A stretch of 64,000 nt of DNA, from NCBI GenBank assembly GCA_016432285.1, contig CP066682.1, positions 730,274-794,273 on the forward strand, written 5' to 3'. Below, piece by piece: positions 44,413 to 64,000 of the stretch; positions within the stretch are counted from its first letter, which is position 1; each line of letters starts with the position of its first letter. Source of the stretch: Candidatus Kaiserbacteria bacterium (GTDB lineage: Bacteria > Patescibacteriota > Minisyncoccia > Phycocordibacterales > UBA2100). Under the pieces are notes generated by a model, which did no database searches, was not told the origin of the DNA, and saw nothing but the letters and a program-made list of their open reading frames with translations. Made by a program: the position numbers and the translations under genes.

Positions 44413-44479
44413 GGTCCCTTTCAGTATATAAGAGGAATGCCTCTCGCGTGGCATTGTCCCCACGAGTACGTCTTGTATT

Positions 44480-45637: not shown

Positions 45638-45645
45638 ATCGCGCA

Positions 45646-46815: not shown

Positions 46816-46840
46816 GCGACAATTATAAACTTTCGAGATC

Positions 46841-48036: not shown

Positions 48037-51000
48037 AGAGTGGGCGGATCGCGGCGCTCACTGGAAGGTTTAGCCTTCCAACGGGAGCGGGGCGGAGCGT
48101 CTACTGGAAGGTTTAGCCTTCCAGTGGGGGGCTTCCCTCTTGGGACGGGGAGGATGAAGAAGGACATGCCGATGAGGAAGGCGATGGCTTGGACGAAAGA
48201 GGAGACGACGGAGGCGGCGGAAGCGGCGGAGTATTTGAAGGGCTGCTCGGCAAATGCCATGTACACGTACGTCCCCCCGCTCGCATTTGCACCAGCTGCC
48301 GTGTTTCGCTGCTTGAACCCATTGGCGAGAAAATCCATATCGTTGCAGGACGCGGTTTCCGCTGCGTTGGACTCCAATCCAAAACACGGACTGATCGGAT
48401 TACTCGTATCTCGCGCCGCATCGTATGTATTCCAAGAGTATCCGAGCGTGTCTGTCCGTTTGATCACTACGTACTTAGGTTTGAACCCCGTGTACACAAA
48501 CGGCCCATCGGCCGAGCCGTTGCCGGTGTAGGAGCCGAAGTCGGAGAAGCCGGAGATTTCATCAAAAAGATAGGCGACATAGTTGTTGCCGCTGGTATTC
48601 ACATCAGCATTGGTACCGAGCGAGAAGACGGATGCGGTCGGCGCGGTGTCGTTCCAGTAGGTGGCATCGTCGGCGGTCGCGGCTGTGCCGTTCATCAAGA
48701 GGTAATCGGTCTCCGGCGCTGAAGTATTGGCAGCGTGGTAGACCGCCCAGTCGTTGGTCGCGCCGCGGTCTTTTACGATCATAAATTCTGGTGCAGAAGA
48801 GAGCGAATGGCTGATTGTGCGATTGGCACCGGTGCCGGCGTACGGCACGATATCGAATCCGCTCGTCGGATCTTCCTTCCAAAGCCACGAGATGTAGTTG
48901 TTGCCGCTTGTGTTGAAGAGCGAATTTGTGCCGAGCGTGAAGCCGTTTTCCAAGAATGCGGTGAGTGCCGATGCCGAGCTCGTCTCAATCGTCGTCGCGT
49001 TTGAAGAAAGATACGGAAACGTACTGCGTAGCGAATCGAAGAGCCCGTGCGCATTCGCGCTCGTTCTGTCTTTTATCCATGTGAGCGTCGGCGTGAAGTC
49101 GAGCCCCGTCACCGAGAGCGCGGCCCCCGTCCCCGTGTACGTGAGCGCATCGAAGTAATCATCGGGCTGCGTAATCGTCGGCGTAGGAAGATTCGTGGTC
49201 GAGAGGGCTTTGAAATCCGTCGGTGGTGCGTATTGGAAGTACCCTCCTGCCGATGAGCGGTATGGAAGTACCGTTGCTGTTGATGTCGGCGAAGAAGACT
49301 GGCCGAAGTTGAAATTGTACGAATGAGTCTGCCCGCTGGTTTGGCCAGCACCCGCGCCAATGAAGAGCGGGCCAGTGAGACCAGTAAATGCCGAGTTCGT
49401 GCCCGCTGCCGGATCACCGCTCGCCTGCCACGTGCCATTTTTTGAAAACCAAATCTTTCCGTTATCCAAATCGAGCGCAACGCCAATAACGTCGTTGGTC
49501 GTAAAGGTGTCGCCATAGGCGCTGTCACTGCTGCTATTTCGCTTGTTTCCACCACCTGCGTACGTGTACGCGAGATAATTGCTCTCGAGAATACAGTTTT
49601 GAACGGATGACGCGCCGATGAGATATCCTCCGCTAACGCCCGTAGTTCCGGTCGGGACGATCTCGGCGTACCATTTGCCCGATGTGGGTCCGATGGAAGA
49701 GCGACCGAATGTATAACAAGCCGGCGACGCGGGAAAGCTGTCTATCGTTGCCGTGAGGTTTCCTTGAGCAGCCGTCAGATCACTCGACGAATTTGCCAGT
49801 ATGTTTAGAGTCGCAGACCCATTCGTCGGGGAATCCTTGACGTTGTCGGTCGCGTCGAGGTTGTTGGCCGTCCAGTCATTGTTGTTGCTACTCGTATCGT
49901 CGCCGGGGCTGGTGGAGGTGAGCGGCAGGTGGAATCCATTAGTGCCATACGTCCCCGAATATGTCTTCGGTCGCCAGTAGCCCGATGCGTCGTATTCGCC
50001 GAAGTCGGAGGGGGTGAGTGCTTGTCCGTCGATGGCGTAGAAATCCGCAAGGTAGCCGTCGTAGTAAGAGGTCCCGCTATGCTGTTTGCCGAAAGCGTGT
50101 ATGACATTGTCGAGAACGTTCACGTCCGAGTTTTGCGTCATTGATGTATAGCCGGAGCCCGACCACGTTTGTGCAACGCCATTGACCCAAAGCCGGATTC
50201 TATCCGCGGCAGTTGCCTGCGTACTGTCTACGGTAAAGACAATGTGGAGCCACGCACCTGGATCGCGAAACTTCGCGTTTGTTGTATAGCTCCAGGTCTC
50301 ATTACCTGCATAGCCATACAACGTATCGCTGGTCGTAAACCGGAGGCCGTCTGCCGAGTATGCCGACCAGTTGATAAGAAATTGCTCGGTCCCCAGATTT
50401 GCCCGCTTGACCCAAAAGCTGAACGTCGCTGTCTTGCCCGCACCCGTCCCCGCAGATGAGAACGTTTTGGTTAGACTCGCACTATCGTCATCATTGAAAC
50501 GCGTGCTCGATGCGATGGTGAGGTTGTACGCTTGCGCGGATTGCTGGAAGGGCTGTTCGGCGAATGCGGCGTAGACGTACGTGGCACCACTGGCATTGTA
50601 GTTGGCATCCGTCGCACGCGGCTTGAATCCGTTTGAGAGAAAATCCATCTGCCTACTTGATCCGTCGTCTGCGTTTGTCAGATTGGCGTAGATCATGATG
50701 TCGCGGAGATTACCGTCGCCAGCAGCGCTACGTCGGTTGTCCCAGATGTACCAGCCGTTCGTTGAGGCACTGTCGCTTCTTTTTACAAGCAAGAACGCCG
50801 GCTTGAATCCCGTATACACGAACGGCCCATCGCTTGAGCCGTTGCCGGTGTAGGAGCCAAAAGATGAGTAGCCGGTGGTAGAGGCGAAGAGGTAGGCGAC
50901 GTAGTTGTTGCCGCTTGTATTTACATCCGCGTTGGTGCCGAGCGAGAAGACGGATGCGGTCGGAGCCGTATCGTTCCAATATGTAGCGTCGTCGGCAGTT

Positions 51001-53891
51001 GCCGCAGTCGAATTGAGAAGCAGGTAATCGGTCTTTGGGTCAGAGGTGTTTGCGGTGTGGTACACCGCCCAGTCGTTGGTGGCACCGCGATCTTTGATGA
51101 TCATAAAGTCGGGGGCGACACCGAGCGAGTGGCTCACGGTGCGATTGGCTCCCGTGCCCGTGTAATTCACGATGTCGAAGCGCGAGGTCGTGTCTTCTTT
51201 CCAGTTCCAGCTCACATAATTGTTGCCGCTCGTGTTGAAGAGCGCATTGGTGCCGAGGGTAAATCCATTCGAGAGGAAGCTCGTGAGCGTGGTCGAGGCA
51301 CCGCCGGTCTCCGCCGTCGTCGCATTGGACGAGAGGTACGGGAAGACGGAGCGGATGGCATCGAAGAGCCCGTGCGCGTTCGCGCTCGTGCGGTCTTTAA
51401 TCCAGACGAGGGAGGGGGTGAAGCCGAAGGATACGCCGGTCGAGACGTAGGTAATTTTGATGATGCCTTGCGCCCCCGCGCCGCCATTGCCCGTGGTCGT
51501 TCCTCCATATCCGCCCGAGCCGCCGCCGCCGCCGTAACTGCCCCCGTTGCCGCCGGCCGAACCGGTCGGCTCTTGCCCCGAACCGCCGGCGCCACCGCCA
51601 CCAGAGCCATGAGTGGCGTCCCACTCGGTACCGTTACCTCCGTTGCCGCCCGCCGCCCCCGCCACACCAGTGCCTCCGGCACCGCCTAAACCATTACCGC
51701 CCTGCCCGCCACTGGTGCCTGCAACTCCAGCACCAAGACCTGCAGTGCTAACGCCATCGGCACCCGCACCACTTGGGCCGCCGGCGCCACCACCACCCTG
51801 CCCGGCATAGTTGTTGGAGATATAGCCGCCTGTCCCGCCATTATATTTCGTACTCCCTACTGAAGCCGATGCAAGCCCGCCGGCTCCGGAACCCGTCAAG
51901 TAAACTGCACCATTGCCTGCCTTTGCACACACCGAAACAGTGTCGGCACAAGTGTTTGCTGACCCCGATGTCCGATTAAAGAATGTATCTGTTCCGGCAC
52001 TACCGTTCGACCCGTTGGTCGCGCCGCCTGCACCTCCTGCACCGACCTGAAAAGTGACGTTCCCGCCGGGAGTAAGAGAAAGATTTGATACTTTTGAATA
52101 AGCTCCGCCGCCGCCGCCGCCGTGGTCGCCATCGGCAGTCCCATCACGAACGCCGCCGCCGCCGCCGCCGATTACCTCAATAGTGTTGCTCGCATTGCCC
52201 CAATCGCTCGGCACCTGCCAAGTTTTGGCCGTCGTGTCCGTGAGATATACCGTGACGGTTTGCCCGGCAGTAGATGCGGCTGCCCGCGATACAGACTGTG
52301 CGGCGCCGCTACCCGTGTACGCCACCGCGTCAAAATAATTCTTCGGCACCGTGACCGCCGGCTCCGGAAGATTGGCAGTAGAAATTGCTTTGAACCCCGT
52401 CGGAGGCGTGTACATAAAGTAGCCGCCGGCTGCCGAGTCGTAGGTAAGTGTCGTTGCGGTGGAGGTCGGATTTTTGGATTGCCCGAAAATCAGATAGCTT
52501 TCCGTACTTCTGCTTACTCCAGCATCCATTCCTACTACCGGAAAAATCGGCGTGGTGGTGGAGATGTTGGAGAAGGCGGCATTTGTGCCCGCCACCGGAT
52601 CGGAAGATTCAAACCATCCGCTTTCGTCGCGGACGAAGAGTTTTCCGGCATCTGCATCGATCGCAACACCTAGGGTCAGATCGAGAGAACACGTGGAGTA
52701 CGTCGGCCCATACGCCGTGAGCGTCGTGTTGTAGATGGTGCACGATTTACCGCCGGTACACGAGCCCGAATTGGCGGGTAGCCATCCCCAGCTATTCGTA
52801 GTTTGCCCTACATATTCATCTTTACTTGCGTTGGTATTTGCTACTCCTACTTCAACATTGCAAATTCCCGACAAGTTCGCACTGCGAGCTTCAAAATACC
52901 ACTTGCCGCTGGTGATACCCATCGTTGCAAAATCGGTGGCGTTGGTACCGGTCCGGCTTGAATACAGATTGCCTTGAGAGTACGTCGAGATGGAAGGCTT
53001 GTTGAGCACGTTCAGGGTCGGATACATATTGGTCGGCGTATCAACCTCTTGATCCGTCGCGTTGATATTGTTGGCGGTCCAGTCGTTGTTTTGGCCGCTC
53101 ACGTCGTTACCAAGATCCGAGCCGCTCGCGAAATCAAGCTTAAAGCCGTTGGTGCCGTAGGTTCCGGTGTAGCTTTTGGGTCGCCAGTAGCCGTTGGCGT
53201 CCGTCTCGCCAAACGACGATGGCGTCAGCGCCTGGCCGTCGATCAGATAGACATCGGAAAGGTAACCATCAAAGTATGTTGAGTTTGAGTTACCGAATCG
53301 CCCTATTGCATGTGGATCCGTGCCATTTACTCTCGTGTCGACGTTTTGCGACGGGTCGTTTGCATCGCGAGCGATTCGCTGGCCATTCACATAAAATATG
53401 ACCCTGTCACCTGCGGTAGCTGCTGTCGTGTCCACAGCGACTACCACGTGCATCCATTGTGAAGGGTCTCGAAATACCGCGGTACTTTGTGTAGTCGGCG
53501 CGTTTGAACTGCTTTCTCGGCGTTGGAATTGGAGCTTATCGGAGTTGAAAGATATCGACGTGTGATGATCACCCGCCGTTGGTTCAGCGCTAAAGAGGAT
53601 ACCGTCTGTGAGATTCGCCCGCTTCACCCATGCACTCCACGTCCACGTCTTTTTATTTCCTGCGCTACTGGGCGTGCGCGACAGTCGAGCACTGTCGTCG
53701 TCGTTGAAGCGCGCGGAATTCGATATTGAATACGCGGCTTTGGCTTCCGGAAGCTGGAGGAGCACAAATTGCGTCGCAAATATCGCCAAGGAGATGAGAA
53801 GCGCGGTCGCGATACGGTGATGCCAGAGGTATCCCCCGATTGCGGGAATATATTTAGAGTTTAAAGATTTAAATGTTGGAAGCGGGAGCAT
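48033..53891 (-). CDS. Giant membrane-anchored surface protein (1952 aa) with two LamG-like (concanavalin-A-like lectin) domains in a duplicated ~800-aa super-repeat and a Gly-rich core
   Basis: N-terminal anchor (IATALLISLAIFATQFVLLQL). Two LamG-like jelly-roll signatures (TWTWSAWVKRANL...WMHVVVAVD...VIFYVNGQ and TATFSFWVKRANL...WLHIVFTVD...IRLWVNGV). A duplicated block ending NYVAYLF...FGSYTGNGS(A/S)DGPFVYTGFKP...YVYMAFAEQPF. A central tract of about 250 aa that is more than 50% Gly (GGGGGVRDGTADGDHGGGGGGAYS...GGNGGSYGGGGGSGGYGG). The last about 40 codons are REP-derived. Confidence 0.7.
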   Translation of the reverse strand: MLPLPTFKSLNSKYIPAIGGYLWHHRIATALLISLAIFATQFVLLQLPEAKAAYSISNSARFNDDDSARLSRTPSSAGNKKTWTWSAWVKRANLTDGILFSAEPTAGDHHTSISFNSDKLQFQRRESSSNAPTTQSTAVFRDPSQWMHVVVAVDTTAATAGDRVIFYVNGQRIARDANDPSQNVDTRVNGTDPHAIGRFGNSNSTYFDGYLSDVYLIDGQALTPSSFGETDANGYWRPKSYTGTYGTNGFKLDFASGSDLGNDVSGQNNDWTANNINATDQEVDTPTNMYPTLNVLNKPSISTYSQGNLYSSRTGTNATDFATMGITSGKWYFEARSANLSGICNVEVGVANTNASKDEYVGQTTNSWGWLPANSGSCTGGKSCTIYNTTLTAYGPTYSTCSLDLTLGVAIDADAGKLFVRDESGWFESSDPVAGTNAAFSNISTTTPIFPVVGMDAGVSRSTESYLIFGQSKNPTSTATTLTYDSAAGGYFMYTPPTGFKAISTANLPEPAVTVPKNYFDAVAYTGSGAAQSVSRAAASTAGQTVTVYLTDTTAKTWQVPSDWGNASNTIEVIGGGGGGVRDGTADGDHGGGGGGAYSKVSNLSLTPGGNVTFQVGAGGAGGATNGSNGSAGTDTFFNRTSGSANTCADTVSVCAKAGNGAVYLTGSGAGGLASASVGSTKYNGGTGGYISNNYAGQGGGGAGGPSGAGADGVSTAGLGAGVAGTSGGQGGNGLGGAGGTGVAGAAGGNGGNGTEWDATHGSGGGGAGGSGQEPTGSAGGNGGSYGGGGGSGGYGGTTTGNGGAGAQGIIKITYVSTGVSFGFTPSLVWIKDRTSANAHGLFDAIRSVFPYLSSNATTAETGGASTTLTSFLSNGFTLGTNALFNTSGNNYVSWNWKEDTTSRFDIVNYTGTGANRTVSHSLGVAPDFMIIKDRGATNDWAVYHTANTSDPKTDYLLLNSTAATADDATYWNDTAPTASVFSLGTNADVNTSGNNYVAYLFASTTGYSSFGSYTGNGSSDGPFVYTGFKPAFLLVKRSDSASTNGWYIWDNRRSAAGDGNLRDIMIYANLTNADDGSSRQMDFLSNGFKPRATDANYNASGATYVYAAFAEQPFQQSAQAYNLTIASSTRFNDDDSASLTKTFSSAGTGAGKTATFSFWVKRANLGTEQFLINWSAYSADGLRFTTSDTLYGYAGNETWSYTTNAKFRDPGAWLHIVFTVDSTQATAADRIRLWVNGVAQTWSGSGYTSMTQNSDVNVLDNVIHAFGKQHSGTSYYDGYLADFYAIDGQALTPSDFGEYDASGYWRPKTYSGTYGTNGFHLPLTSTSPGDDTSSNNNDWTANNLDATDNVKDSPTNGSATLNILANSSSDLTAAQGNLTATIDSFPASPACYTFGRSSIGPTSGKWYAEIVPTGTTGVSGGYLIGASSVQNCILESNYLAYTYAGGGNKRNSSSDSAYGDTFTTNDVIGVALDLDNGKIWFSKNGTWQASGDPAAGTNSAFTGLTGPLFIGAGAGQTSGQTHSYNFNFGQSSSPTSTATVLPYRSSAGGYFQYAPPTDFKALSTTNLPTPTITQPDDYFDALTYTGTGAALSVTGLDFTPTLTWIKDRTSANAHGLFDSLRSTFPYLSSNATTIETSSASALTAFLENGFTLGTNSLFNTSGNNYISWLWKEDPTSGFDIVPYAGTGANRTISHSLSSAPEFMIVKDRGATNDWAVYHAANTSAPETDYLLMNGTAATADDATYWNDTAPTASVFSLGTNADVNTSGNNYVAYLFDEISGFSDFGSYTGNGSADGPFVYTGFKPKYVVIKRTDTLGYSWNTYDAARDTSNPISPCFGLESNAAETASCNDMDFLANGFKQRNTAAGANASGGTYVYMAFAEQPFKYSAASAASVVSSFVQAIAFLIGMSFFILPVPRGKPPTGRLNLPVDAPPRSRWKAKPSSERRDPPTL
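48061..48124. repeat. Two REP (family 3) copies at the 3' end of the giant gene
   Basis: ctggaaggtttagccttcca (48061-48080) and ctggaaggtttagccttccag (48104-48124). The giant ORF reads through both (...GRLNLPV... and ...WKAKPSS...) before stopping at 48033. Confidence 0.85.
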
Positions 53892-53892
53892 A

Positions 53893-54384
53893 TCAGGATT
53901 TTATATCACCTCCCGGTGTGTAGAGGTGTGGATGAATCTTTGAAAGCTCCTTGCGTGCATTGCGCATAAACTCTTGCGCTTCTCGCTCGTCCTTGCTCAA
54001 TTCCCGTTTGCGTTGCAAACCGCTGTGCGGAGATGATTTGAGTGCCCTGATGAACGACGCGGTAAGTCTCGATGCCTGCTCTGCCAAATCATTTAAATAT
54101 TTAAATGTTTGAATATTCAAATACCCTATGTCATTTGCGATGTAGAGCTGTGCCCGCACCTCGCCGCACGATGCTTTTGCAATATAGAGGTAATTCAAAA
54201 ACCCCTCGCGTGTTCCCGACTCAAATCCTTCCGCGATGTTTGATACGACCGATACCAAAGCTCGCTGTATTTGATCGGTGAATCCTCTATCGTGACAACC
54301 ACGAAACACCTTGTAGACTTCGCGTGCTAGTTCTCGCCCCTTTTTCCAGGCCAGCAGCTCTTCAAATCTGTGCACAGTCGCCAT
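53893..54384 (-). CDS. Four-helix-bundle protein (TIGR02436-like; the family often called '23S rRNA intervening sequence protein')
   Basis: A 163-aa protein with the characteristic pattern ...FTDQIQRALVSVVSNIAEGFESGTREGFLNYLYIAKASCGEVRAQLYIANDIGYL... Visibly lower GC than its neighbours, and wedged 1 nt from the next gene's start. Confidence 0.6.
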   Translation of the reverse strand: MATVHRFEELLAWKKGRELAREVYKVFRGCHDRGFTDQIQRALVSVVSNIAEGFESGTREGFLNYLYIAKASCGEVRAQLYIANDIGYLNIQTFKYLNDLAEQASRLTASFIRALKSSPHSGLQRKRELSKDEREAQEFMRNARKELSKIHPHLYTPGGDIKS

Positions 54385-54387
54385 GCA

Positions 54388-57300
54388 CTAGAAGTTGGTC
54401 GCGGCAGCGCCGAATACTTGCGTCGCGGAAGAAGTGGCGTAGGTAGCGATGAATGTCGCGAGGTCGCACTTATTTGCAGTCGTGGTGAGGGTTGGCGCCG
54501 TGCCGCTTTGCCAGTTGACGCTGCCCCACGTGACAGTGCGCGATCCTGTGCCGTCCTGACACACCACAAGCCGCAAGATCTGTCCGGCGACATAGTTGGA
54601 GAAGTTGATTGTGCGGTTGCCACCGAGCGTTACGCGCTGCTGGTTGCCGTCACGCCAGTTGACTGTGATCGTCGCTCCATCAGTGAGCGCGTTCTCCACC
54701 GTCGTGATGGCGCCTCCGGCACCCACGGTGAATTTCGCCCACGGACTTGAGGTGCCCACACCGAGCTTGCCGTCGCTCGTGAAGACGAGGAGCGACTGAT
54801 TCGTCGTCGAAGCGATTTGCAAGAAGTTGCTTGTATCGTCGCTCGTCTCGATCGTGAGTTTGTATGCGGGCGTAGATGTGCCGATGCCGATTTTATTTTC
54901 CGCGACAATATTTCCGGTGCCAGTGGGATTGCCCGAAGGGCACGAGCCGCCGGTGCAAGACCAGAGATTATCGTCGTTGAGGAAGATGTCGTTGCCCGAC
55001 GGATCGATCGTTAGATCACCCGAAGCGTCGGTGAGGAATTGCGTGTAGCGTCCGGCATCGTACGCGAGTGCGAGTTGGGCGGTAGAGACCGCATCGGCGA
55101 CCGAAAGCTTGCGGAAAGGCGTCGTCGTGCCGACACCGAGGTACCCGGCGCTCGAAAGGCGCATCGCCTCGGTGAGCGAGCCCGACTGGAGCGTTGAGAA
55201 GACGAGATCCCCTTGGCCAGCTCCATAGTTCTGCTGGAGGATCGACGCGATTGCGGCCGTCGAAGTGCTGTTGCCGAGCACGTCGAGCGCTCGGAAGGTG
55301 AGGCGCGAAGCGCTCGAGGTGGCGCTCGCGAGATTCGAGAGGAAGAGGTTGTCGAAGGTGGAACCGCTCGAAGCGCCTGCAATCTCCATCTTAGCTGACG
55401 GAGTCGTGGTGCCGACACCGAAGTTGCCAGACGTCGTAAGGAAGATTGTAGAAGTTGCAGTAAGACTTGTTCCTGCTGCTTGGTAGAACGGAAGTTGTCC
55501 TTGCGTGCCGCTTCCGACGCTCCCGCCGAGACACGATCCGTTGACCGAAAAGCAGCCATCGTTGAGGTTGATGCCGTTCGCGGCAGTGGAGGTGGCACTG
55601 CCTGTCAGATTGAAAGCGGTCATTTGCAGGGCTCCGTACACTGTTGAGGTTCCACTATTTATAAAGTTGGCCACGTTGCCGATTGAAAAGACTGACGCGG
55701 GCGAGGAGGTACCGATCCCCACGAGCCCGTTGGCGTCGATAGCGAAGACGCTGGACGTAGCAAAACCCGAAGTGGAGGAAGAGATCGCAAAGAGCGGTGC
55801 CGTACCTCCCGCAGCGCCCGCGACCGAGAGCCGGGCAAAGGGCGAAGTGGTGCCCACACCGAAGCCCGTCGATGTCCAGCGCGTCAGCTCCGAGCCGCCG
55901 ACGATCGCGTTGATGTTGCCGGAGACGCCGGCCGCAAAACCGGTCGTGGAATCGCCGCGGCTGACGATGATATTTGGAGTCGTTTGTGTAACTCCGCTTG
56001 CATTCAAGAGCGAGAAACCCGCGGAGTTTGTCGAGCTCAAGGTGCCGCCGGTCGTGATCGCGCTTCCCACAGTGAGTCGAGCCGTACCTGCGGAGGAAAT
56101 AACGACCGAGCCACTGCTGTTGTAAATTCCCGAGTTTGAGTTGTTGGTAAAGGCGAGTGCGGGCGAGGATGCCGAGCCATCAGCGAGATAGCCGACGCCA
56201 GCGATCGAAAGCGCGGTGGTGGAAGCGTACGGGAACGTGTTGGCGGAGGTGGAGGTGACGGTAATCGCGCCGGTGGTGTCGATGGTCGTCGTTGCAGTGG
56301 CGCCGAAATACGCAGGGCCGTACGAAGAGAAGAGTGTCGTGGAAGCGCGCGGCAGTGTGGTGAGGCCGCTTACCGTGAGCGTTCCCGCACCCGAAATATT
56401 ACCCGCAGTGTCGATTGTGGTTGTGGCGGTCGAACCGAAGTAGGCGGGACCGTAGGCGGAGAGAAGAGTCGTCGAGGCGCGCGGCAGTGTGGTGAGGCCG
56501 CTCACCGTGAGCGATGAGAGCACCGTGGCACCCGCGTCGAGCGTATCGGCACCGATGTTGATCGCTCCGAAACCGGTGGTGATCTGACCGCTGTCGAGCG
56601 CTCCGACCGAAGTGAGCGACGAGCCGACTACGCTTGACCCGAGCGTCGTGCCGTTTAGCGCGAGCGCGTTGTTGATGAGGAACGCGCCGCCCGAAGCGAG
56701 GTTGAGGTTGCCGCCAGTGAGCGTGATGCCGCCCGAGAAAGTAGAGGTGGCGCTGTTGCCCACGATCGAGGTGGTGGCTGTACCGCCGATACTCAAGGTG
56801 CCGTAGCTTGTTGCGGACGAGAAGGTACTGGCACCCGCGGTGAGAGCACTGGATCCGATGTTGATGGAACTAAATCCGGAGCCGATGGACCCGGCGGTGA
56901 GTGCGCCGACTGTCGTGATCGAGGTCTGACCAACGTACGTAGAAGAAATATCGATCGCGTCGGCCGTCACCGAAATCCTGTTGGCCGTTCCCACCGCATT
57001 CACCGTATTACCGCTTTTGGTGAGACCATCGCCCGCGGTGATCTCGGATGATCCCGAGAATTGAGTGAATGAGAGCGAGGTGCTGTCGAGCGTGATGGTG
57101 GCCGGAGTAATCAGGGACCAGCCGGTGTTGGCGTATGCGGTTCCCTCAGTTACGAACGTGTACATCCCGGTAATCACTTCCGAATTCTCATTGGCGTCTG
57201 ACGAGCGCGACCACGCGCCAGCCGCGACTACATAGATGCCGTTGGCGCTCGCCGTACTCTGCCCCATCACCAACACGCGATCGCCCGCGATCGCCGAGAC

Positions 57301-60300
57301 GCCATCGATCGTCTGCGTGCCGGAGAGCGTGATATTGGAAGTGGTCGCGAGGCGCACCGATGCTCTCACCGAAAGCCCCTGCGCGATCGCGTCGACGTAC
57401 GCCTTCGTCGCTGCTTCTTGTGCGGAAGTCGGATCCGCAAGACCGGTGATCTTCTTGCCTCCGAATGCCACATCACCCGAAAACGTGGTGGTCGCCGCCG
57501 AGAGTGTGCCCGTAACCGACACATTGCCCGTGAAAGATCCCGTGCCATTGATGGTGAGATTGCCGGACCCGGTGATTGCGGAGCCGACGATCGAAGAGAA
57601 GGTCGCGGCACCGCCGGTGATCGGCGACGAGCCGATGTCGATAGCGCCAAAACCGCTGCCGAGCGCTCCGGATGTGAGCGTGCCGACCGTCGTGATCGAC
57701 GTTTGTCCGACGTAGCTCGAGGAGATATCGACGCTGTCAGCGTTGACCGTGATGCGGTTGCTCGTCCCGACCACGTCGAGCGTGTTGCCAGATTTAGTGA
57801 GCCCACTGCCAGCCGTGATCTGCCCCGCACCGGAGAACTGCGTGAATGCGAGGAGCGAGGTACCAAGCGTAATCGGATCCGCCGTTGTGAGCACCCAGCC
57901 CGAGTTCGCGTTGATCGTGCCTTCAGAAATGAACGTGAAGAGTCCGGAGCCGACCTCCGCGTTCGTGTCCGCGTCTTCCGAGCGGGTCCACACACCGGCA
58001 GACACCGCATACAGACCGTTCTTCGTTTGGTCGGTCTGATTTTTCACAAGCACGCGATCACCCGCCACGAGCGACACGCCGTCGACCGTCTGCTCACCGG
58101 AGAGTGTGATGTTCGCCGTGGTGGCCGCGCGCACCGAATCCTTGAGGTCAAGTCCTTGCGCCACCGAATCGACGTAGGATTTGTTGGCCGCGTCGCCGCT
58201 GTCGCTCGGCGTGGCGACGCCCGTGATCTTTTTCGTATTGAGCTGTAGCTCGCCCGAGAGAGTGGTGGTCGCGGCGGCGAGCGTGGTGCCGACCGAAAGC
58301 GAGCTAGAGAGTGTGGCGGCGCCTGTCACACCGAGCGTGCCGCCGATCGAGGCGTTGTTGGTGACAGAGAGTCCGGTGCCCGTGCCTGCAGCAGTGAGCG
58401 TGCCGTCGGCGCGGAGTGTCGAGTAAAAGCGGCTCGCGCCGGTAGCTTGGAGCGTCGAGGAGGCCGCAAATGCACTCGTCAGCCCGAGCGTGCCCGCGAT
58501 CGTCGTATTGCCTGTTGCGGGGGCGACGATGAAGCTGCTGCCGCCCACGGTGAAGTTGCCGGTCGTCACGTCGAGGCCATTCGTGGCGTCGACGTTGCCC
58601 GCAAACGTAACCTGCCCCGTGCCCGTCTGGTTGATAGGCCCAGTCGCAGAAAATGTGAGTGAGCTACCGCCCGAGATCGTAAGATCACCCGAGATGTCAG
58701 TGGCTACGTCGACATCGAGTCCGGTCGTGGGAGCAGCAGTGCCGATCCCAACGCGGCCGGAGTTTTGCTGCACGACGAATTTGCTGGTCTGTGCCGTGAT
58801 GCCGCCCGCAAAGGTCGAGGTCGCACTCGAGGAAGTCGCGACCAGATTCGCGGCGTCGAGGAAGGAGGAGAAGCGGCCGCCGCCCGTTACTTCGAAGGGA
58901 TAGCTGGGAGAAGCGGTGAGCACTCCGAGCCTTCCCGAGGAGTCGAAGGTGGATGTCGCGGAGCCGCCAAAGTATGCGCGGTCGAAGACCGAAAGCCGTG
59001 TCGTCGATGCTCCGGAGGAAAAGAGCTGCAACGCGCTCCACGAATTCGAGACGCTCGGCGACGCATAGTCGCTTCCTGCGGTGGCCACCGAAACGAGGCC
59101 GACCGAAGAGGTTTTCAAGATACCGCTTGGCGAACCGGAGACCGTAAGATTCGTCGTGCTTGCCGTGCCGAAATAGCCGGTGCCGGAAACCGAGAGCGCG
59201 GTCGACGACGCATACGGAAATACGTTGGCAAAGACCGCTGTCACGGTGATCGCGCCCGTCGTACCGATTGTGGTCGTGCCAGTCGCGCCGAAATACGAAG
59301 GGCCGTACGAGGAGAGAAGTGTTGTCGATGCGCGCGCGAATGACGCGAGGCCCGTGGCGCTCAAGGTGCCGCCCACCGAGAGGTTGCCCGATGCGTCAAG
59401 CGACGATGTCGCCGTCCCGCCGAAGTACGCCGTGCCGAAATTGGAAAAGTTCGTACTGGACGCGCCTGCGGAGAAGAGCTGGAGCGCGGTCCAGGTGTTG
59501 GCAGATGTCGTCCCAAACGCGGTGGAAAGCGTACCGGAAGTGAACACCAAACCATTGCCAACGGTCGCAGCTTGCACGCCCCCGGAGCTATTCGTCGACA
59601 GCAGCGAAGAAGGCGCGCCGGAAATAGTTAGATTGCTTGTTGAGGCAGTCGTGAAGTAGCCGCTTGTGGCGCTAAAGGCGGTCGAGCTTCCGTAGGTGAG
59701 GGTAAGCTTACCTGCCGAGTCGAACGACGATGTCGCCGTCCCGCCGAAGTACGCCGTGCCGAAATTGGAAAAGTTCGTACTGGACGCTCCCGCAGAAAAA
59801 AGCTGCAAGGCGGTCCAGGTGTTGGCATCGGAGAGCGAAGCGCCTCCACCGCCTCCCACGATGCACGTGCCGTCGACCGCAAAACAACCATCGGAAATAT
59901 CGATGCCGTTTGCAAAAGTCGTGGTTGCCGAACCTGTAACCGCAAGACGTGTTGATGTCGCGTTGCCAAATGAGACGTCGCCGGAGATGCTGAGAGAGGA
60001 CCCGGAAATTGATGCGCCGCTGATCGAACCGCCGGAGAATGTCGAGTTGGTAATGCTGACGCTCGAGAGGTTGTCGATACGCTGCGTTACCGCGATCATG
60101 TTGACCACGCCCCCCGAAGCAACGGGCGACGACGCGCTCGTGATTCCGTAGATCTGTGCAACAAGCTTGTTGTCGAGTTCGTTCAGCTTCGATTCCAAAA
60201 TCGATTCAGTGATGCCACCGACACTCACAATACGCTCCGTCTCAATCACGCGTTCGATGACCGGCTGGTTGATGATGGTTTGCGCAAGCGCCGCGCCGCC

Positions 60301-61158
60301 TTGGACTGAAGGTGTGGAAGTCGCCGATCGGGGAATCACACGCACGCGCACTCCGTCGCTCGCGATATTTTGATCCGAAGCCTTCGCAAGTGTCGTGCTC
60401 GTCGCAGGATCGTGGAAAACGAGGCGGTACATGAACGAGTCGATACGCTCGTTCCACGCGCGCGCGATACCCGAAAGAAAATCATTCATGGCGCCGCCCG
60501 GGTCGTTGGCCGCGGCAGCCAATTGCTCGCGCGCCGATTCGATCAGTGAAATGTTTGACGCAGCAGAGCGAACGGCGACGCTCGCATACTGCTGATCCAC
60601 GAAGGCGAACGTGCCCGCGGTAAAAAGGACGGCCACGAACACCGCGATCAACTTATGCACGAACTCCATCGCGGGCGTCAGCGCGTAGGCGCTCGTGAGC
60701 GGCGCGGTCGGAAGTTTCATCGCGATATCGGCGATGTGGGCAGCGTGCGCGTGCACGCTCGGAGAGCGCGCAATTTTTTCGAGCGCGGATTGCACGTGAT
60801 AGCTGCGGTAGCTCGAATCGGCGGCGAAGCGCCTGCTCGCCGCATACTGCATGTCGTACGCGGAGCTTTTTTCGCGCGAGGCCGCGCTCGTTTTGCCGCT
60901 TCCGGACCACGCGGCTCGGTACTCCTCCTTTCGCTGCCGGGCAAGATCCTGTGCGCGCTCGGCGCGTTGCTTGCTCTGATTTTTTACAAAAGTGTCGAGC
61001 GAGTCGCTTGAGACATACCAATTCGTGCCAATCCGCCGGCCCTGGACCCTGCCGTCCTTACAGAGGCGTGCGACATAGTCGCGGGTAAATCCCGCTGTGC
61101 GCGCCGCTTCCGCAGCGGAGATATATCGTGTGCCGTCAAAAAAAATTTCGTCAGTCAT
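54388..61158 (-). CDS. Giant type-II membrane protein (2256 aa): N-terminal cytoplasmic excisionase-like HTH module, one TM, then about 2050 aa of extracellular Ser/Thr/Gly/Ala-rich beta-type repeats
   Basis: N-terminus MTDEIFFDGTRYISAAEAARTAGFTRDYVARLCKDGRVQGRRIGTNWYVSSDSLDTFV, which fits the HTH_17/Xis-like pattern (EAA..G.s...v.rl...G......iG..W.v....L..f). A basic stretch, then the TM helix LIAVFVAVLFTAGTFAFV near residue 175. Several families of internal repeats follow: three near-identical ANTWTALQLFSAGASSTNFSNFGTAYFGGTATSS units; two ~190-aa units beginning KKITG(V/L)A(T/D)P...AA(N/T)K(S/A)YVD...GDRVLV...NG(L/I)Y; and TVSGLTTLPRASTTL units. Confidence 0.7.
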   Translation of the reverse strand: MTDEIFFDGTRYISAAEAARTAGFTRDYVARLCKDGRVQGRRIGTNWYVSSDSLDTFVKNQSKQRAERAQDLARQRKEEYRAAWSGSGKTSAASREKSSAYDMQYAASRRFAADSSYRSYHVQSALEKIARSPSVHAHAAHIADIAMKLPTAPLTSAYALTPAMEFVHKLIAVFVAVLFTAGTFAFVDQQYASVAVRSAASNISLIESAREQLAAAANDPGGAMNDFLSGIARAWNERIDSFMYRLVFHDPATSTTLAKASDQNIASDGVRVRVIPRSATSTPSVQGGAALAQTIINQPVIERVIETERIVSVGGITESILESKLNELDNKLVAQIYGITSASSPVASGGVVNMIAVTQRIDNLSSVSITNSTFSGGSISGASISGSSLSISGDVSFGNATSTRLAVTGSATTTFANGIDISDGCFAVDGTCIVGGGGGASLSDANTWTALQLFSAGASSTNFSNFGTAYFGGTATSSFDSAGKLTLTYGSSTAFSATSGYFTTASTSNLTISGAPSSLLSTNSSGGVQAATVGNGLVFTSGTLSTAFGTTSANTWTALQLFSAGASSTNFSNFGTAYFGGTATSSLDASGNLSVGGTLSATGLASFARASTTLLSSYGPSYFGATGTTTIGTTGAITVTAVFANVFPYASSTALSVSGTGYFGTASTTNLTVSGSPSGILKTSSVGLVSVATAGSDYASPSVSNSWSALQLFSSGASTTRLSVFDRAYFGGSATSTFDSSGRLGVLTASPSYPFEVTGGGRFSSFLDAANLVATSSSATSTFAGGITAQTSKFVVQQNSGRVGIGTAAPTTGLDVDVATDISGDLTISGGSSLTFSATGPINQTGTGQVTFAGNVDATNGLDVTTGNFTVGGSSFIVAPATGNTTIAGTLGLTSAFAASSTLQATGASRFYSTLRADGTLTAAGTGTGLSVTNNASIGGTLGVTGAATLSSSLSVGTTLAAATTTLSGELQLNTKKITGVATPSDSGDAANKSYVDSVAQGLDLKDSVRAATTANITLSGEQTVDGVSLVAGDRVLVKNQTDQTKNGLYAVSAGVWTRSEDADTNAEVGSGLFTFISEGTINANSGWVLTTADPITLGTSLLAFTQFSGAGQITAGSGLTKSGNTLDVVGTSNRITVNADSVDISSSYVGQTSITTVGTLTSGALGSGFGAIDIGSSPITGGAATFSSIVGSAITGSGNLTINGTGSFTGNVSVTGTLSAATTTFSGDVAFGGKKITGLADPTSAQEAATKAYVDAIAQGLSVRASVRLATTSNITLSGTQTIDGVSAIAGDRVLVMGQSTASANGIYVVAAGAWSRSSDANENSEVITGMYTFVTEGTAYANTGWSLITPATITLDSTSLSFTQFSGSSEITAGDGLTKSGNTVNAVGTANRISVTADAIDISSTYVGQTSITTVGALTAGSIGSGFSSINIGSSALTAGASTFSSATSYGTLSIGGTATTSIVGNSATSTFSGGITLTGGNLNLASGGAFLINNALALNGTTLGSSVVGSSLTSVGALDSGQITTGFGAINIGADTLDAGATVLSSLTVSGLTTLPRASTTLLSAYGPAYFGSTATTTIDTAGNISGAGTLTVSGLTTLPRASTTLFSSYGPAYFGATATTTIDTTGAITVTSTSANTFPYASTTALSIAGVGYLADGSASSPALAFTNNSNSGIYNSSGSVVISSAGTARLTVGSAITTGGTLSSTNSAGFSLLNASGVTQTTPNIIVSRGDSTTGFAAGVSGNINAIVGGSELTRWTSTGFGVGTTSPFARLSVAGAAGGTAPLFAISSSTSGFATSSVFAIDANGLVGIGTSSPASVFSIGNVANFINSGTSTVYGALQMTAFNLTGSATSTAANGINLNDGCFSVNGSCLGGSVGSGTQGQLPFYQAAGTSLTATSTIFLTTSGNFGVGTTTPSAKMEIAGASSGSTFDNLFLSNLASATSSASRLTFRALDVLGNSTSTAAIASILQQNYGAGQGDLVFSTLQSGSLTEAMRLSSAGYLGVGTTTPFRKLSVADAVSTAQLALAYDAGRYTQFLTDASGDLTIDPSGNDIFLNDDNLWSCTGGSCPSGNPTGTGNIVAENKIGIGTSTPAYKLTIETSDDTSNFLQIASTTNQSLLVFTSDGKLGVGTSSPWAKFTVGAGGAITTVENALTDGATITVNWRDGNQQRVTLGGNRTINFSNYVAGQILRLVVCQDGTGSRTVTWGSVNWQSGTAPTLTTTANKCDLATFIATYATSSATQVFGAAATNF

Positions 61159-61494
61159 AAAGACTGCCTTCAGAATTGGAGGCTTCTTGCTATCCGTGAG
61201 CCGCTTCCGATGCGACGTGAATGAATCGAAAGCTACTCACCAACACACGTCGTAGCTAGATTTTACTAGATATTTCGGGCATCCTGTTGAAAAAGGGTGT
61301 GCAAATATGGGGATAACTGTGAGATAAGGTGTTGGCAGTCACGCCACGGTGAGGGCCGGAGCGCATCAAGCGCCGCGGAATCACGTGGTGACTGTTTGAG
61401 GCTGAAATACCTCGCCATTTCTCGACCAAAGTCCAGTGCACGCCGGACGCGCAATCGATCTCGGCTATGCGAGATACGAAAACAAGGCGGAAAA

Positions 61495-62460
61495 TCAGCG
61501 TTCGCGGCGGAACGAGACGCCCGGTACGATCAACTGTTCAAGAAAATCGCCAATCTTCGCGAGAGTGCTCGCAGCGCTCGCCGTGAGAGCCTCTGTACCC
61601 TCCCGTAGCTTCAGATTTTGTGTATAGAGGGACGACGACTTCAGCGAGACAAATCCCACTGAGAGGAATATGACGACCGTGGCAACGGCCCCAGCGAGAG
61701 TGATGGACTTACGCATTGAAGTACGGGGCGCCTTCCTGCCGACCCGGATCCCCGCGATGAGGTGCGAGGGAATGCGCTGCTCGGCTTCCCGAGGTATGTG
61801 TTTTCGAATCGGGATGGGGTGTTCGATGCCTTCAGTTTCGAGCGGCAAGGTCGGCTCGGCCGAAGCGGGAGCATAATTTTCCGCCGACGAAGCAGTTCTC
61901 GGAAGCAAATCGCGACTATCAGATACGTATGTATAAAAAGGTTCTGCTCCGTTGTATCTATATATTCCTAACGATTCCGGTTGGACCGACTGCGACTCCG
62001 GCTTTCGGAGACCAACCGATTCCGCCTGCACTGCTGCGAGGAGCGAATCCTTTTTGTGCTTATGCCCGACTATGTCCGATTTCCCGACGTACCACCGATT
62101 CCCCACCTGCCGCGCCATGATCGCGCCGCTTCGCGCGAGTTGCGAGACGTAGTCCTGGTGGTAGCCCGTCAGCTCGGCCGCCTTTGATGCCGAGATGTAG
62201 TCCTTGCCGTCAAACGAGACGAGCGCTTCAGGATTCGCGACCGGAGGTTTGCGGGGCGGCTCGGGCTTATAGCTTTCCGCACGCTGCTTGTATTCCTGGA
62301 GCGATTCAAGCGAGACGTACCAGAGCGTGCCGATACGATGTGCATCGATCTGACCCGAGCGTGCGAGCTGTCCTACGTAATCTTGCGCGTATCCGCATTC
62401 CTGCGCTGCTTTTTTTGAGGGGATGTAGGTTTTCCCGGCGACGGCGATCTCATCGGTCAT
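61495..62460 (-). CDS. Membrane protein with two tandem N-terminal excisionase-like HTH modules and a C-terminal TM; paralogous to the N-terminus of the giant downstream gene
   Basis: MTDEIAVAGKTYIPSKKAAQECGYAQDYVGQLARSGQIDAHRIGTLWYV (module 1) and DGKDYISASKAAELTGYHQDYVSQLARSGAIMARQVGNRWYV (module 2), the same module as residues 1-50 of the 2256-aa protein. A C-terminal TM ITLAGAVATVVIFLSVGFV. 321 aa. Confidence 0.6.
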   Translation of the reverse strand: MTDEIAVAGKTYIPSKKAAQECGYAQDYVGQLARSGQIDAHRIGTLWYVSLESLQEYKQRAESYKPEPPRKPPVANPEALVSFDGKDYISASKAAELTGYHQDYVSQLARSGAIMARQVGNRWYVGKSDIVGHKHKKDSLLAAVQAESVGLRKPESQSVQPESLGIYRYNGAEPFYTYVSDSRDLLPRTASSAENYAPASAEPTLPLETEGIEHPIPIRKHIPREAEQRIPSHLIAGIRVGRKAPRTSMRKSITLAGAVATVVIFLSVGFVSLKSSSLYTQNLKLREGTEALTASAASTLAKIGDFLEQLIVPGVSFRRER

Positions 62461-62567
62461 ACAAAAAGTATATCCTGTCTTTCACCGTGCTGATTCGCCC
62501 ATGGGGACAGCGATGTCTCGGCACGGAAGTAAGCCAATCTCGGACCCGAGATACGAAATCTCGAAAG

Positions 62568-64000
62568 TCAGGAAATCGCCTCGAAGATCATTTTCTTGAG
62601 AAGTGCTGGATCCGCGGCTCCTTTGGTGGCCCGCATGCCCTGTCCAATGAGGAACTGGAGCGCCGCCTGCTTGCCGCTCTTGAAATCCGCCACAACTGAA
62701 GGATTAGCCTCTAGGACGGATTTCACAGAGGCCTCGAGGCCCTTCGAATCGCTGATCTGTAGGAGGCTGCGGTCCTTAGCGACCGCTTCAAGATCGCCGT
62801 CGATTCCCTCTCTCGCAACCGCAGAAATGAGATCCTTCGCTCCCCGTGACGACAATGCTCCCTGCCCCGCCATATCGACGATTTTGGCTAAACTGTGTGC
62901 CGAGATCGGGATATCGGCACTGTAATCCGAATCTCGTTTCTGGATATCTCGGAGCACGCTGACGAGATCGTTCGCGATGTAGTTGGCCGCGGTGAGACGT
63001 CGGTCCTTGGGGAGCTCTCGTGCGACGGCATCAAAAAAGTCCCCAAGAGCGCCTTCCGCAGTGAAAAGCTGGGCGTCGTCGGGCTTCAGCCCCATCTGCA
63101 GATAACCCTCGCGCCGTACGGAGGGCAACACTGGCAGCTCTGCGGCCAGCGCATCGGCACGAAAATCACCAATCTCTGAAATCTGAAGCGAGGGCAGATC
63201 CGGATCGGGAAAGTAGCGGTAGTCCGCGCTTCCCTCCTTCGTGCGCTGCGCAAACGTCTGCTGCTTCCCCTCGTCCCATCCCCGAGTCTCCTGGCGCACC
63301 TGCTCCCCGCTTTGAAGCGTCTTTTTTTGCCGCTCTATTTCGTACGCGACTGCTTTCTCCATGATCTTGAACGAGTTGAGGTTTTTGATTTCAACTTTTG
63401 TGCCGAGCTCACCCTTCTTGCCGACCGACACATTGGCTTCGACGCGCATCTCACCTTTTTCCATGTTGGCTTCCGATGCGCCGAGGTAGCGTAGGAGAAG
63501 CTGCAATTCTTTCGCGAATGCAGACGCATCTTCCGCGCTGTGAATCTCCGGTTCCGTCACGAGTTCCATGAGCGGCACGCCCGATCGGTTGAAATCGATC
63601 GTCGTCGTGCCTTCGTCGTCGCTGTGAATCGAGCTCGCCGTGTCTTCCTCGAGATGCACGCGCGTGATCGGCACGCCGAGGAGTGCTCCCCCGGAAACCA
63701 GCGGGTACTCGTACTGACTGAGCTGATAGCCTTTTGGGAGATCGGGGTAGAAGTAATTTTTGCGGTCGAACTCTGTGTAGTCGGCAAGCCGTCCGCCAAG
63801 CGCGAGACCAACCTTTAAGACGTGCTTCACCGCTTCCCTATTGATCACCGGGAGAGAGCCCGGATGCGCGAGGCATACCGGGCAGATATTTACGTTCGGC
63901 TTTTTTTCGTCGGGATCGTTTTTCGAAGTGCAGAACATCTTCGTCGCGGTCCGCAGCTCAGCGTGGATCTCGAGACCGATGGTCGCTTCGTACTCACTCA
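62568..64000 (-). CDS. gatB: Asp-tRNA(Asn)/Glu-tRNA(Gln) amidotransferase subunit B (5' end lies beyond the window)
   Basis: Translation of 64000 back to 63939 gives ...YEATIGLEIHAELRTATKMFCTS..., the conserved GatB N-terminus, so the ORF-track start MFCTS is internal. The remainder matches GatB through the C-terminal YqeY-like domain. Confidence 0.85.
   Translation of the reverse strand, partial: SEYEATIGLEIHAELRTATKMFCTSKNDPDEKKPNVNICPVCLAHPGSLPVINREAVKHVLKVGLALGGRLADYTEFDRKNYFYPDLPKGYQLSQYEYPLVSGGALLGVPITRVHLEEDTASSIHSDDEGTTTIDFNRSGVPLMELVTEPEIHSAEDASAFAKELQLLLRYLGASEANMEKGEMRVEANVSVGKKGELGTKVEIKNLNSFKIMEKAVAYEIERQKKTLQSGEQVRQETRGWDEGKQQTFAQRTKEGSADYRYFPDPDLPSLQISEIGDFRADALAAELPVLPSVRREGYLQMGLKPDDAQLFTAEGALGDFFDAVARELPKDRRLTAANYIANDLVSVLRDIQKRDSDYSADIPISAHSLAKIVDMAGQGALSSRGAKDLISAVAREGIDGDLEAVAKDRSLLQISDSKGLEASVKSVLEANPSVVADFKSGKQAALQFLIGQGMRATKGAADPALLKKMIFEAIS

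Follow-up and report, generated by a model that had tools for sequence, protein, structure and literature searches.

The gene pair and its winged-helix modules

The 64-kb stretch of DNA analysed here (hereafter the window) is part of the 859,170-bp contig of a metagenome-assembled genome (MAG) of Candidatus Kaiserbacteria and encodes, next to gatB on the reverse strand, two neighbouring genes whose products combine a helix-turn-helix (HTH) module with a single hydrophobic segment. Patescibacteria (Candidate Phyla Radiation, CPR) account for a sizeable part of bacterial diversity, and their presumed way of life is attachment to other cells. To our knowledge, almost nothing is known of their attachment apparatus and gene regulation outside a few Saccharibacteria. 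The two products, of 321 and 2256 amino acids (aa), are referred to as the small protein and the giant in the following (Table 1). Both translations start with the residues MTDEI, and coordinates and start residues agreed exactly with those in a preliminary description of this DNA. In the small protein, two winged HTH (wHTH) modules in tandem are followed by a linker of variable sequence, a patch of basic residues, a transmembrane (TM) helix and a tail of 45 aa that is predicted to lie outside. One module and one TM are present in the giant, as had been proposed previously along with the two copies and TM of the small protein; the modules were recovered with a module profile, and a Kyte-Doolittle scan showed exactly one hydrophobic segment in each protein. 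C-terminal of the TM we counted 2067 residues in the giant, where approximately 2050 had been expected, and this part is a fibre of extracellular type with homology to phage tail-fibre and decoration proteins (see below).

Table 1. Positions of the gene pair, its parts and neighbouring features within the window.
Feature	Position	Strand	Basis or remarks
Small gene, 321 aa	61495-62460	(-)	Open reading frame (ORF) list, Pfam, AlphaFold2 (AF2); 100% identity to QQG37865.1 (NCBI 'helix-turn-helix domain-containing protein')
Small protein, module 1, aa 1-59	62284-62460	(-)	Module profile, AF2; recognition helix AQDYVGQLAR
Small protein, module 2, aa 78-135	62056-62229	(-)	Strongest HTH_17 stretch; recognition helix HQDYVSQLAR
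Small protein, TM helix after K/R-rich patch	61633-61710	(-)	aa 251-276; Kyte-Doolittle segment aa 251-278; AF2
Hairpin TCGTATCTCG-catag-CCGAGATCGA directly after small-gene stop	61455-61479	(-)	Motif recurrence
Candidate promoter/operator region of giant gene	61235-61330	(-)	Conserved motif arrangement
Giant gene, 2256 aa	54388-61158	(-)	ORF list; 100% identity to QQG37864.1 (NCBI 'hypothetical protein HYS26_04550')
Giant, wHTH module, aa 1-59	60982-61158	(-)	Hidden Markov model (HMM), BLASTP, AF2, 75-species consensus
Giant, long basic helix continuing from module, aa 51-89	60892-61008	(-)	AF2
Giant, hydrophobic segment, predicted signal-anchor TM	60592-60681	(-)	aa 160-189; Kyte-Doolittle segment aa 159-189; AF2 helix
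Giant, juxtamembrane segment and helical neck, aa 190-345 (...IERVIETERIV..GGITESILESKLNELDNKLVAQIY)	60124-60591	(-)	Conservation, AF2
Giant, phage-type fibre/decoration domain copy 1, aa 961-1234	57457-58278	(-)	PHROG, IMG/VR, internal duplication
Giant, phage-type fibre/decoration domain copy 2, aa 1220-1482	56713-57501	(-)	PHROG, PDB; 57-66% identity to copy 1
Giant, C-terminal tip domain, aa 2098-2238	54445-54867	(-)	C-terminal ends of phage tail-fibre PHROGs
gatB, listed as 456 aa from internal ATG	62568-63938	(-)	
PF05635 (23S_rRNA_IVP, four-helix-bundle) gene, 163 aa, between giants	53893-54384	(-)	Separated from the giants by 3 and 1 nt
Second giant gene, 1952 aa, directly downstream	48033-53891	(-)	Pfam
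IS200-type Y1 transposase	47377-48036	(-)	Only transposase among scanned window ORFs
Signal peptidase I, 7 kb downstream of giant	46841-47407	(-)	
Two ~390-aa proteins without Pfam match	44480-46815	(-)	
Surface Ig-like-domain protein	43417-44526	(-)	

The conserved unit comprised approximately 58-62 aa, with an N-terminal beta-hairpin preceding the HTH_17 core, and is longer than the approximately 45 aa assumed in the preliminary description. The small protein matched the Pfam family HTH_17 (PF12728) in two stretches with 45.3 bits, above the gathering cut-off of 27, and TIGR01764 'excise' with 37.9 against a cut-off of 28.8. The giant of the window stayed under the Pfam cut-off, TIGR01764 gave the same picture for small protein and giant, and giants of orthologous loci reached 38.4 and 34.4 bits with HTH_17. 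Scored with the module profile, the three copies of the pair ranged from 86 to 96 bits, with residues 1-59 of the giant at 86, and no further copy was found in the window, where only these two genes carry the module. BLASTP aligned residues 1-60 of the giant to residues 1-57 of the small protein (33% identity, E 1e-13) and to its residues 81-155 (36% identity, E 1e-10). Outside the module no homology was found between the two proteins, as an hhalign comparison of the post-module profiles aligned the TM alone with a probability of 1.4%. The designation as paralogs therefore holds for the HTH module and not for the remaining parts.

All three modules were modelled by AF2 with pLDDT values of 93-97 (approximately 96 for the modules of the small protein and 93 for residues 1-80 of the giant), and every modelled module showed the topology beta-beta-alpha-alpha-beta-beta-alpha. 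Outside the modules both TM segments were helical and the rest was of low confidence. Foldseek searches of the PDB returned the excisionase Xis of mycobacteriophage Pukovnik (4j2n) with a probability of 1.0 and a root mean square deviation (rmsd) of 1.7-1.9 A over 46-47 columns. Further matches were TraN (4p0z/4pm3), the excisionase RdfS (8dgl), a RacA-DNA complex (5i44; probability 0.90-0.97) and a BldC-DNA complex (6ama), with excisionase/BldC-type matches at probabilities of 0.94-1.0 and rmsd values of 1.7-2.5 A. TraN was the top Foldseek match of the small protein (E 1.7e-3), and it also came first when the module profile was compared with PDB sequences (E 0.008). By score and by fold the module belongs to HTH_17, and the models predict with high confidence a winged helix of the excisionase/TraN type. 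HMM searches and structure prediction thus agreed with the HTH_17/Xis/MerR-like assignment made earlier, and neither indicated a non-HTH fold.

The low HTH_17 score of the giant and the frequent breakage of assemblies in giant genes might raise the suspicion that the HTH match arose by chance, that the start codon was misplaced or that a small HTH gene and a fibre gene were joined in a chimeric assembly. However, an uninterrupted ORF of module (at residue 1), TM and fibre was present in approximately 85 independent genomes, and the module was near-invariant across 75 species and modelled with a pLDDT of 93. The same protein was also encoded in two independent Logan assemblies besides the 859-kb contig. 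Because of this recurrence, an artefact is excluded for all practical purposes.

Conservation, predicted membrane topology and the fibre ectodomain

For a survey of species we scanned one genome per GTDB species and found relatives in 147 species, which answered the earlier proposal to search the clade for further genes with the module. The loci of 80 species were fetched, ORFs were called and searched with the module HMM. The gene order secA-gatB-small-giant was found on independent contigs and in nearly all of these loci. In nearly every locus, the ORF after the small gene carried the module from residue 1 onwards and continued with a TM and a long C-terminal part. The small protein had at least 703 homologues, the top 120 of which were all approximately 300-350 aa long with 42-51% identity, and a TM was found in 83 of 84 orthologues. 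Giants were far more variable in length, with complete ones spanning 929-3083 aa. Most ended at a contig end, one of them after 3382 aa. Giants of 75 species had the first ~345 residues in common and diverged thereafter. This shared region consists of the module, the basic helix, a poorly conserved linker, the TM, the juxtamembrane segment and the helical neck, and 85 of the 90 orthologous giants had the TM, which lay a median of 166 aa from the start of the module.

An exhaustive search of 1.84 billion representative proteins with the module profile gave 10,632 matches at E<=1e-3 and 4,891 protein clusters at E<=1e-10. The module hence stands for thousands of protein clusters which carry database names such as 'hypothetical' or the generic 'HTH domain-containing protein'. 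Because contig ends truncate most copies of the giant, the architecture has been missed systematically. Assemblies break in the repeats of the giants (in most MAGs, as seen with L009-L088 and P0001-P0011, the giant gene is broken at the contig end), and protein databases therefore hold mostly fragments of 400-1500 aa in which the full architecture is rarely visible. Our initial homology search had returned only 11 relatives, all of them truncated. A phage origin of the module was considered and rejected, as no relative turned up among the viral contigs of IMG/VR when these were scanned with the module alignment.

Some variation of the arrangement was also seen. In some relatives the giant carried two tandem N-terminal modules (P0180, P0182, P0266 and some loci), and a second or third HTH-TM giant was present in some loci, for example in divergent orientation in L037, L067, L073 and L081 (further loci behind both observations: L050, L052, L053, L060, L064, L082, L084). 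A locus of a distant lineage (GCA_030648495.1) encoded an HTH-TM giant without the small partner gene and with the TM approximately 85 aa from the start.

Neither protein had a signal peptide at the N-terminus, where acidic residues were followed by the folded domain. Among the small proteins, the 15-residue TM flanks contained more lysine and arginine (K+R) before the TM in 71 of 83 orthologues and the opposite in 4. In the giant family, K+R content was 14.5% before and 3.4% after the TM. From the missing signal peptide, the K+R content and the positive-inside bias of the small proteins, we infer that both proteins have a cytoplasmic N-terminus and an outer C-terminus, also because only this arrangement puts the phage-fibre part outside.

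Residues 200-2256 of the giant were highly repetitive, with 39.5% serine, threonine and glycine (for the family) and 3.4% K+R. The giant contained a tandem duplication of ~260 aa (residues 961-1234 and 1220-1482, 57-66% identity). This duplicated unit matched PHROG families 27782 (E 6e-87), 2647 (head decoration, 5e-77) and 11518 (tail fiber, 1e-57); annotations among the matched PHROGs were head decoration, virion structural protein and tail fiber. PDB matches were the capsid decoration protein 9nx3_A and the tail fiber gp9 23sh_r. More than 512 viral contigs in IMG/VR matched the unit with up to 69% identity, some of them phage contigs of more than 100 kb. Residues ~1806-2001 matched another tail fiber family (phrog_9942), and the last 250 residues matched the C-terminal ends of tail-fibre PHROGs (phrog_5596, E 7e-10; 9017, 22179, 7760). 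As no C-terminal anchor was found in the giant, the N-terminal TM would be its sole attachment, with the tail-fibre-type tip lying distally as in phage fibres.

The giant thus shares fibre/decoration domains and tip with phage tail fibres and, like these, combines a conserved attachment part with a variable distal part. Chimeric phage-like fibres have also been described from Bdellovibrio, whose mosaic adhesive trimer (MAT) fibres function in prey recognition (PMC10769870). Unlike phage and MAT fibres, the giant has its own N-terminal TM anchor and a wHTH head predicted to be cytoplasmic, and it is encoded in a conserved chromosomal block. A prophage context was not seen for the giant gene; conserved chromosomal synteny and its own TM anchor were found instead. 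The homologies show phage tail-fibre modules which appear to be reused as a cellular adhesin. Together with the tail-fibre-type tip they make the role in host attachment that had been suggested for the giant plausible.

Possible functions of the predicted cytoplasmic heads

Residues at potential DNA-contact positions were compared with TraN of the Enterococcus plasmid pIP501 (4p0z, 4pm3, 6g1t), which like the small protein holds two tandem excisionase-type wHTH domains in one chain. The recognition helix of TraN, x-[RN]-[ND]-Y-x-x-[QH], resembles that of the module, x-[RQ]-D-Y-x-x-[RQ]. TraN is, however, a repressor of ~120 aa that is soluble in the cytosol and belongs to a type IV secretion system (T4SS) operon, whereas in the small protein the modules are followed by ~100 linker residues, a TM and the outer tail, and its gene lies beside gatB and the giant; no T4SS genes were seen near the pair in window ORFs and related contigs. 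The residues R23, N24, Q28, H82, R86, G100 and K101 are needed for DNA binding by TraN (PMC10877727). In a profile alignment these map onto module positions 26, 27, 31, 35, 44 and 45. Across approximately 85 species, position 35 was variable, but positions 26, 27, 31 and 44/45, together with the neighbouring positions 34, 42 and 46, carried class-specific, near-invariant R, Q, D or K residues. These were R26, D27, R/K31, R/K34 and K/R45 in the giant module, Q26, D27, Q31, R34, R42 and G45 in module 1 of the small protein, and Q/P26, D27, Q31, R34, Q42 and R46 in its module 2. Arginine and glutamine are typical base-contacting residues. Three distinct and strongly conserved recognition surfaces imply three conserved ligands, although the class-specific pattern would also fit conserved protein partners.

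A possible DNA ligand lies between the two genes. The small-to-giant intergenic region was 336 bp long in the window (median 407 bp in relatives) and contained, in this order, the degenerate TTATCCACA-like boxes CTTATCTCACAG (61317-61328) and TTATCCCCA (61308-61316), followed by ...GCCCGAAATAT, CTAGTAAAAT (61260-61269) and CTAGCTACGACG. In related loci (L009-L088) the spacing was fixed, with TTATCCACA 47 bp upstream of CTAGTAAAAT. The core ...GATATCCGAAATAnCTAGTAAAATAnTAGnTAAnTCG contains three (A/T)AAAT units with a 12-bp phasing; the core alone reads GCCCGAAATATCTAGTAAAATCTAGCTACGACG, and the flanks of CTAGTAAAAT are GATATCCGAAAT and TAGnTAAnTCG. From CTAGTAAAAT to the start codon of the giant the distance was 110 bp in the window and 55 bp (median) in relatives. 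At <=1 mismatch CTAGTAAAAT occurred only once in the window. Of the 94 CTAGTAAAAT-like sites in 1.21 Mb of sequence from related loci, 69 were located upstream of HTH-giants, and such a core preceded 65 of 92 giants in comparison to 4 of 84 small genes.

Proteins of this fold such as BldC bind phased direct repeats as head-to-tail multimers (PMC5859096). Excisionases, or recombination directionality factors, and BldC (4j2n, 8dgl, 6ama) share fold and Pfam family with the module, and the core of the giant promoter has phased repeats. Excisionases and BldC are small and soluble and usually integrase partners, whereas the module described here has an additional N-terminal beta-hairpin and forms one chain with a TM and an ectodomain of 2067 aa. 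The 24 window ORFs scanned included no integrase, and given also the chromosomal-core context the module is not an excisionase in function.

In the explanation we prefer, to which we give slightly less than an even chance, the giant would be a host-recognition fibre anchored to the cell, and the heads inside the cell would attach to DNA at the membrane in the manner of ToxR or VtrA. Small protein and giant are a conserved pair of Kaiserbacteria-type Patescibacteria, and both would be single-pass with the N-terminus in the cytoplasm. The giant would serve as receptor-binding fibre in which the virion-docking part of a phage fibre has been replaced by neck, TM, linker and wHTH. Its head and the two heads of the constant small partner would bind DNA sequence-specifically at the membrane, where they might control the fibre promoter or, while coupled transcription, translation and export proceed, keep the fibre locus at the site of insertion. 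As candidate target we regard the conserved promoter core, which was found almost only upstream of HTH-giant genes.

A similar layout is known from ToxR, TcpP, CadC and VtrA, which like the predicted pair consist of an N-terminal cytoplasmic DNA-binding domain, one TM and an extracytoplasmic C-terminal part. ToxR-type regulators are often accompanied by a small bitopic partner (ToxS, TcpH, VtrC). Membrane-bound regulators bind promoters from the membrane and can hold a locus there (PMC7496328, PMC9977878), as described for the type III secretion system 2 (T3SS2) of V. parahaemolyticus, where they capture the target locus at the membrane (PMC9977878). ToxR-type proteins differ from the pair by an OmpR/PhoB-type DNA-binding domain and small sensor outer domains in place of an excisionase-type head and a giant fibre, and there is no sequence relationship; the OmpR/PhoB-type family Trans_reg_C gave no Pfam match in the pair.

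Several observations weigh against DNA binding by the heads in the way just outlined. The HTH_17 score of the giant was 20.7 bits (E 5e-4), under the cut-off of 27. The AF2 model of the small protein had a low overall pTM of 0.35, and each of its two modules superposed on TraN by itself, which the two together did not (rmsd ~25 A over 140 columns). The TM flanks of the giants (15 residues) followed the positive-inside rule in 16 cases and the opposite in 37. A head within ~100 residues of the membrane would have limited access to the chromosome, and an aspartate is invariant within the recognition helix. Canonical HTH residues in the giant were only weakly associated with the presence of the core (odds ratio 3.3, p 0.019, ignoring phylogeny). 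Moreover, TTATCCACA is an exact DnaA-box consensus, and within this syntenic block ~88 more exact copies precede secA and gatB, with a spacing to the -10-like element upstream of secA that is identical to that in the giant promoter. As the box is shared with secA and gatB, we treated it as a general or DnaA-type promoter element. It is probably a part of the giant promoter bound by another factor, and only the proximal core is considered a candidate operator for the co-encoded wHTH proteins.

The invariant aspartate also speaks for a serious rival which we regard as possible, if rather doubtful. The wHTH heads could, like that of RodZ, be protein docking or retention modules, in which case the head of the giant and the two of the small protein would bind each other or a cytoplasmic scaffold. 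They would cluster, orient or retain the fibre, and the folded head could plug the TM against pull-out. The cytoplasmic HTH of RodZ binds MreB and thus provides a precedent. RodZ, with ~300 aa, resembles the predicted pair in being a bitopic protein whose N-terminal HTH lies in the cytoplasm and is followed by a basic patch next to the membrane and by a TM. It differs by its Xre-type HTH (HTH_25), a TM near residues 110-130 and a large periplasmic domain (DUF4115), and both HTH_25 and DUF4115 were absent from Pfam scans of the pair at E<=1. Because the HTH types differ, the pair stands outside the ToxR and RodZ families despite a presumably similar way of working. Class-specific conserved exposed residues fit a protein ligand equally well as DNA, the giant constantly has one copy of the small protein as its neighbour, and one and the same head is kept in all giants while the ectodomains vary, as would be expected for a common anchoring handle. 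On the other hand, the nearest structural relatives are all DNA binders, and the modules have R, Q or K at positions where TraN contacts DNA. The absence of small-giant homology outside the module gives no sign of a shared assembly interface, and a docking partner was not identified.

Two further explanations are less likely than docking. The heads might bind DNA non-specifically and fasten the nucleoid to the envelope where the fibres sit, which would position the chromosome in a very small cell or lend the fibre the nucleoid as ballast. Comparable cases are RacA and Noc, by which DNA is brought to the pole or the membrane. RacA, a chromosome anchor of B. subtilis (5i44), resembles the giant head in that a MerR-like wHTH is followed by a long helix and in that it links DNA to the envelope; it is, however, soluble, reaches the membrane via DivIVA and is devoid of the TM and ectodomain present in the giant. 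The RacA-DNA complex was among the best structural matches, the module of the giant is followed by a basic helix (aa 60-89), the cytoplasmic part contains 14.5% K+R, and some genomes encode several HTH-giants per locus. Class-specific invariant Q/R residues on the recognition helices and a conserved promoter core specific to the giants suggest specific recognition instead, and we consider nucleoid tethering improbable.

Still less probable in our view is a function of the giant as contact sensor, where engagement or load of the fibre would lead to cleavage within or next to the membrane, or to a conformational change, that frees or moves the head and thereby alters transcription, as in Notch or regulated intramembrane proteolysis (RIP). 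The architecture of DNA-binding-type head, single TM and long fibre, the conserved promoter and a signal peptidase I encoded 7 kb downstream would be in line with this. Near the locus, however, neither a site-2 protease nor a rhomboid nor a cleavage motif turned up in the 24 scanned ORFs, conservation is poor in the linker that joins head and TM, and the proposal is entirely speculative.

A more far-reaching version of DNA binding at the membrane would see the pair as a trans-envelope signalling or tethering device, in which the fibre is wired via one TM to an excisionase-type head on the promoter of the fibre genes themselves. Host contact or fibre load would be read as transcription, or the locus would be held at the export site near SecA. 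Separate signalling proteins would be unnecessary in an organism that has almost no regulators. We consider this version unlikely.

Cytoplasmic HTH-TM-ectodomain proteins as such are already known (ToxR/CadC/TcpP, RodZ). What is new is the combination of an excisionase-type head with a giant-fibre ectodomain, and we found no description in the CPR literature of such a head on a giant surface fibre or of this gene pair. The architecture was called undescribed in the preliminary description, which our literature searches support but which is overstated with regard to the general kind of protein. If the heads do bind DNA, they would form a direct physical link from a surface recognition fibre to the chromosome, and the short candidate operator would offer a concrete object amenable to in vitro work without culturing the organism. 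If they dock proteins, this would be the second HTH fold after RodZ recruited for membrane-proximal protein assembly. Phage tail-fibre modules would be reused as a cellular adhesin under either reading.

Neighbouring genes and further non-coding features

The second giant gene directly downstream of the pair encoded two DUF7483 domains (E 5e-188), a Laminin_G_3 (LamG) and a SPRY domain as well as an ordinary N-terminal hydrophobic leader. It showed an internal duplication of ~2.3 kb (48449-49102 and 50771-51427). Neither the HTH module nor the CTAGTAAAAT core was found in this 1952-aa giant. As it would be exported with an ordinary leader and without HTH, the HTH head is not simply an export requirement. 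The genes at 43417-48036 form, together with the giants, a block of ~19 kb rich in surface proteins.

Between the two giant genes we found a gene of the PF05635 family, which includes accessory proteins of diversity-generating retroelements. In related loci (for example L007) copies of this family were located between secA and gatB. A diversity-generating retroelement was considered at this locus and rejected, as only giant-internal repeats and no template/variable repeat pair were present and no reverse transcriptase was found among the scanned ORFs. On the other side of the pair, gatB is probably 477 aa long with a start at ~64001, just past the end of the window, as in the independent assemblies L170 and L171. 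The gap between secA and gatB was 39 nt here, and relatives had a spacer of ~300 bp.

TTATCCACA was seen ~260-310 bp upstream of secA and of gatB in related loci (L003, L005, L007, L011, L012, L019, L031, L034, L042, L043, L045, L059, L062, L084). Upstream of secA it was followed after ~47 bp by GTGCAATAAT and then by a conserved leader of ~90 nt (…CGCATCTTCGCG…GTGCGGGTCGAnCTTAGCAC). It might represent a leader or small RNA not described before, or else a promoter element specific to the clade. An origin of replication was rejected as an explanation for the boxes, since the flanking genes are co-directional, the boxes keep a constant distance and orientation relative to the -10-like element, and the box also occurs before secA and gatB. 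A scan for sigma-70 and terminator consensus sequences was uninformative, and Rfam gave no match in the intergenic regions or in the leaders of related loci. Directly after the stop codon of the small gene, the GTATCTCG/CGAGATAC hairpin motif was present in 37 of 80 related loci, which probably represents a terminator or a repetitive extragenic palindromic (REP)-like element. In the window, the CGAGATAC/GTATCTCG motif was also found upstream of the start of the small gene (62530-62570).

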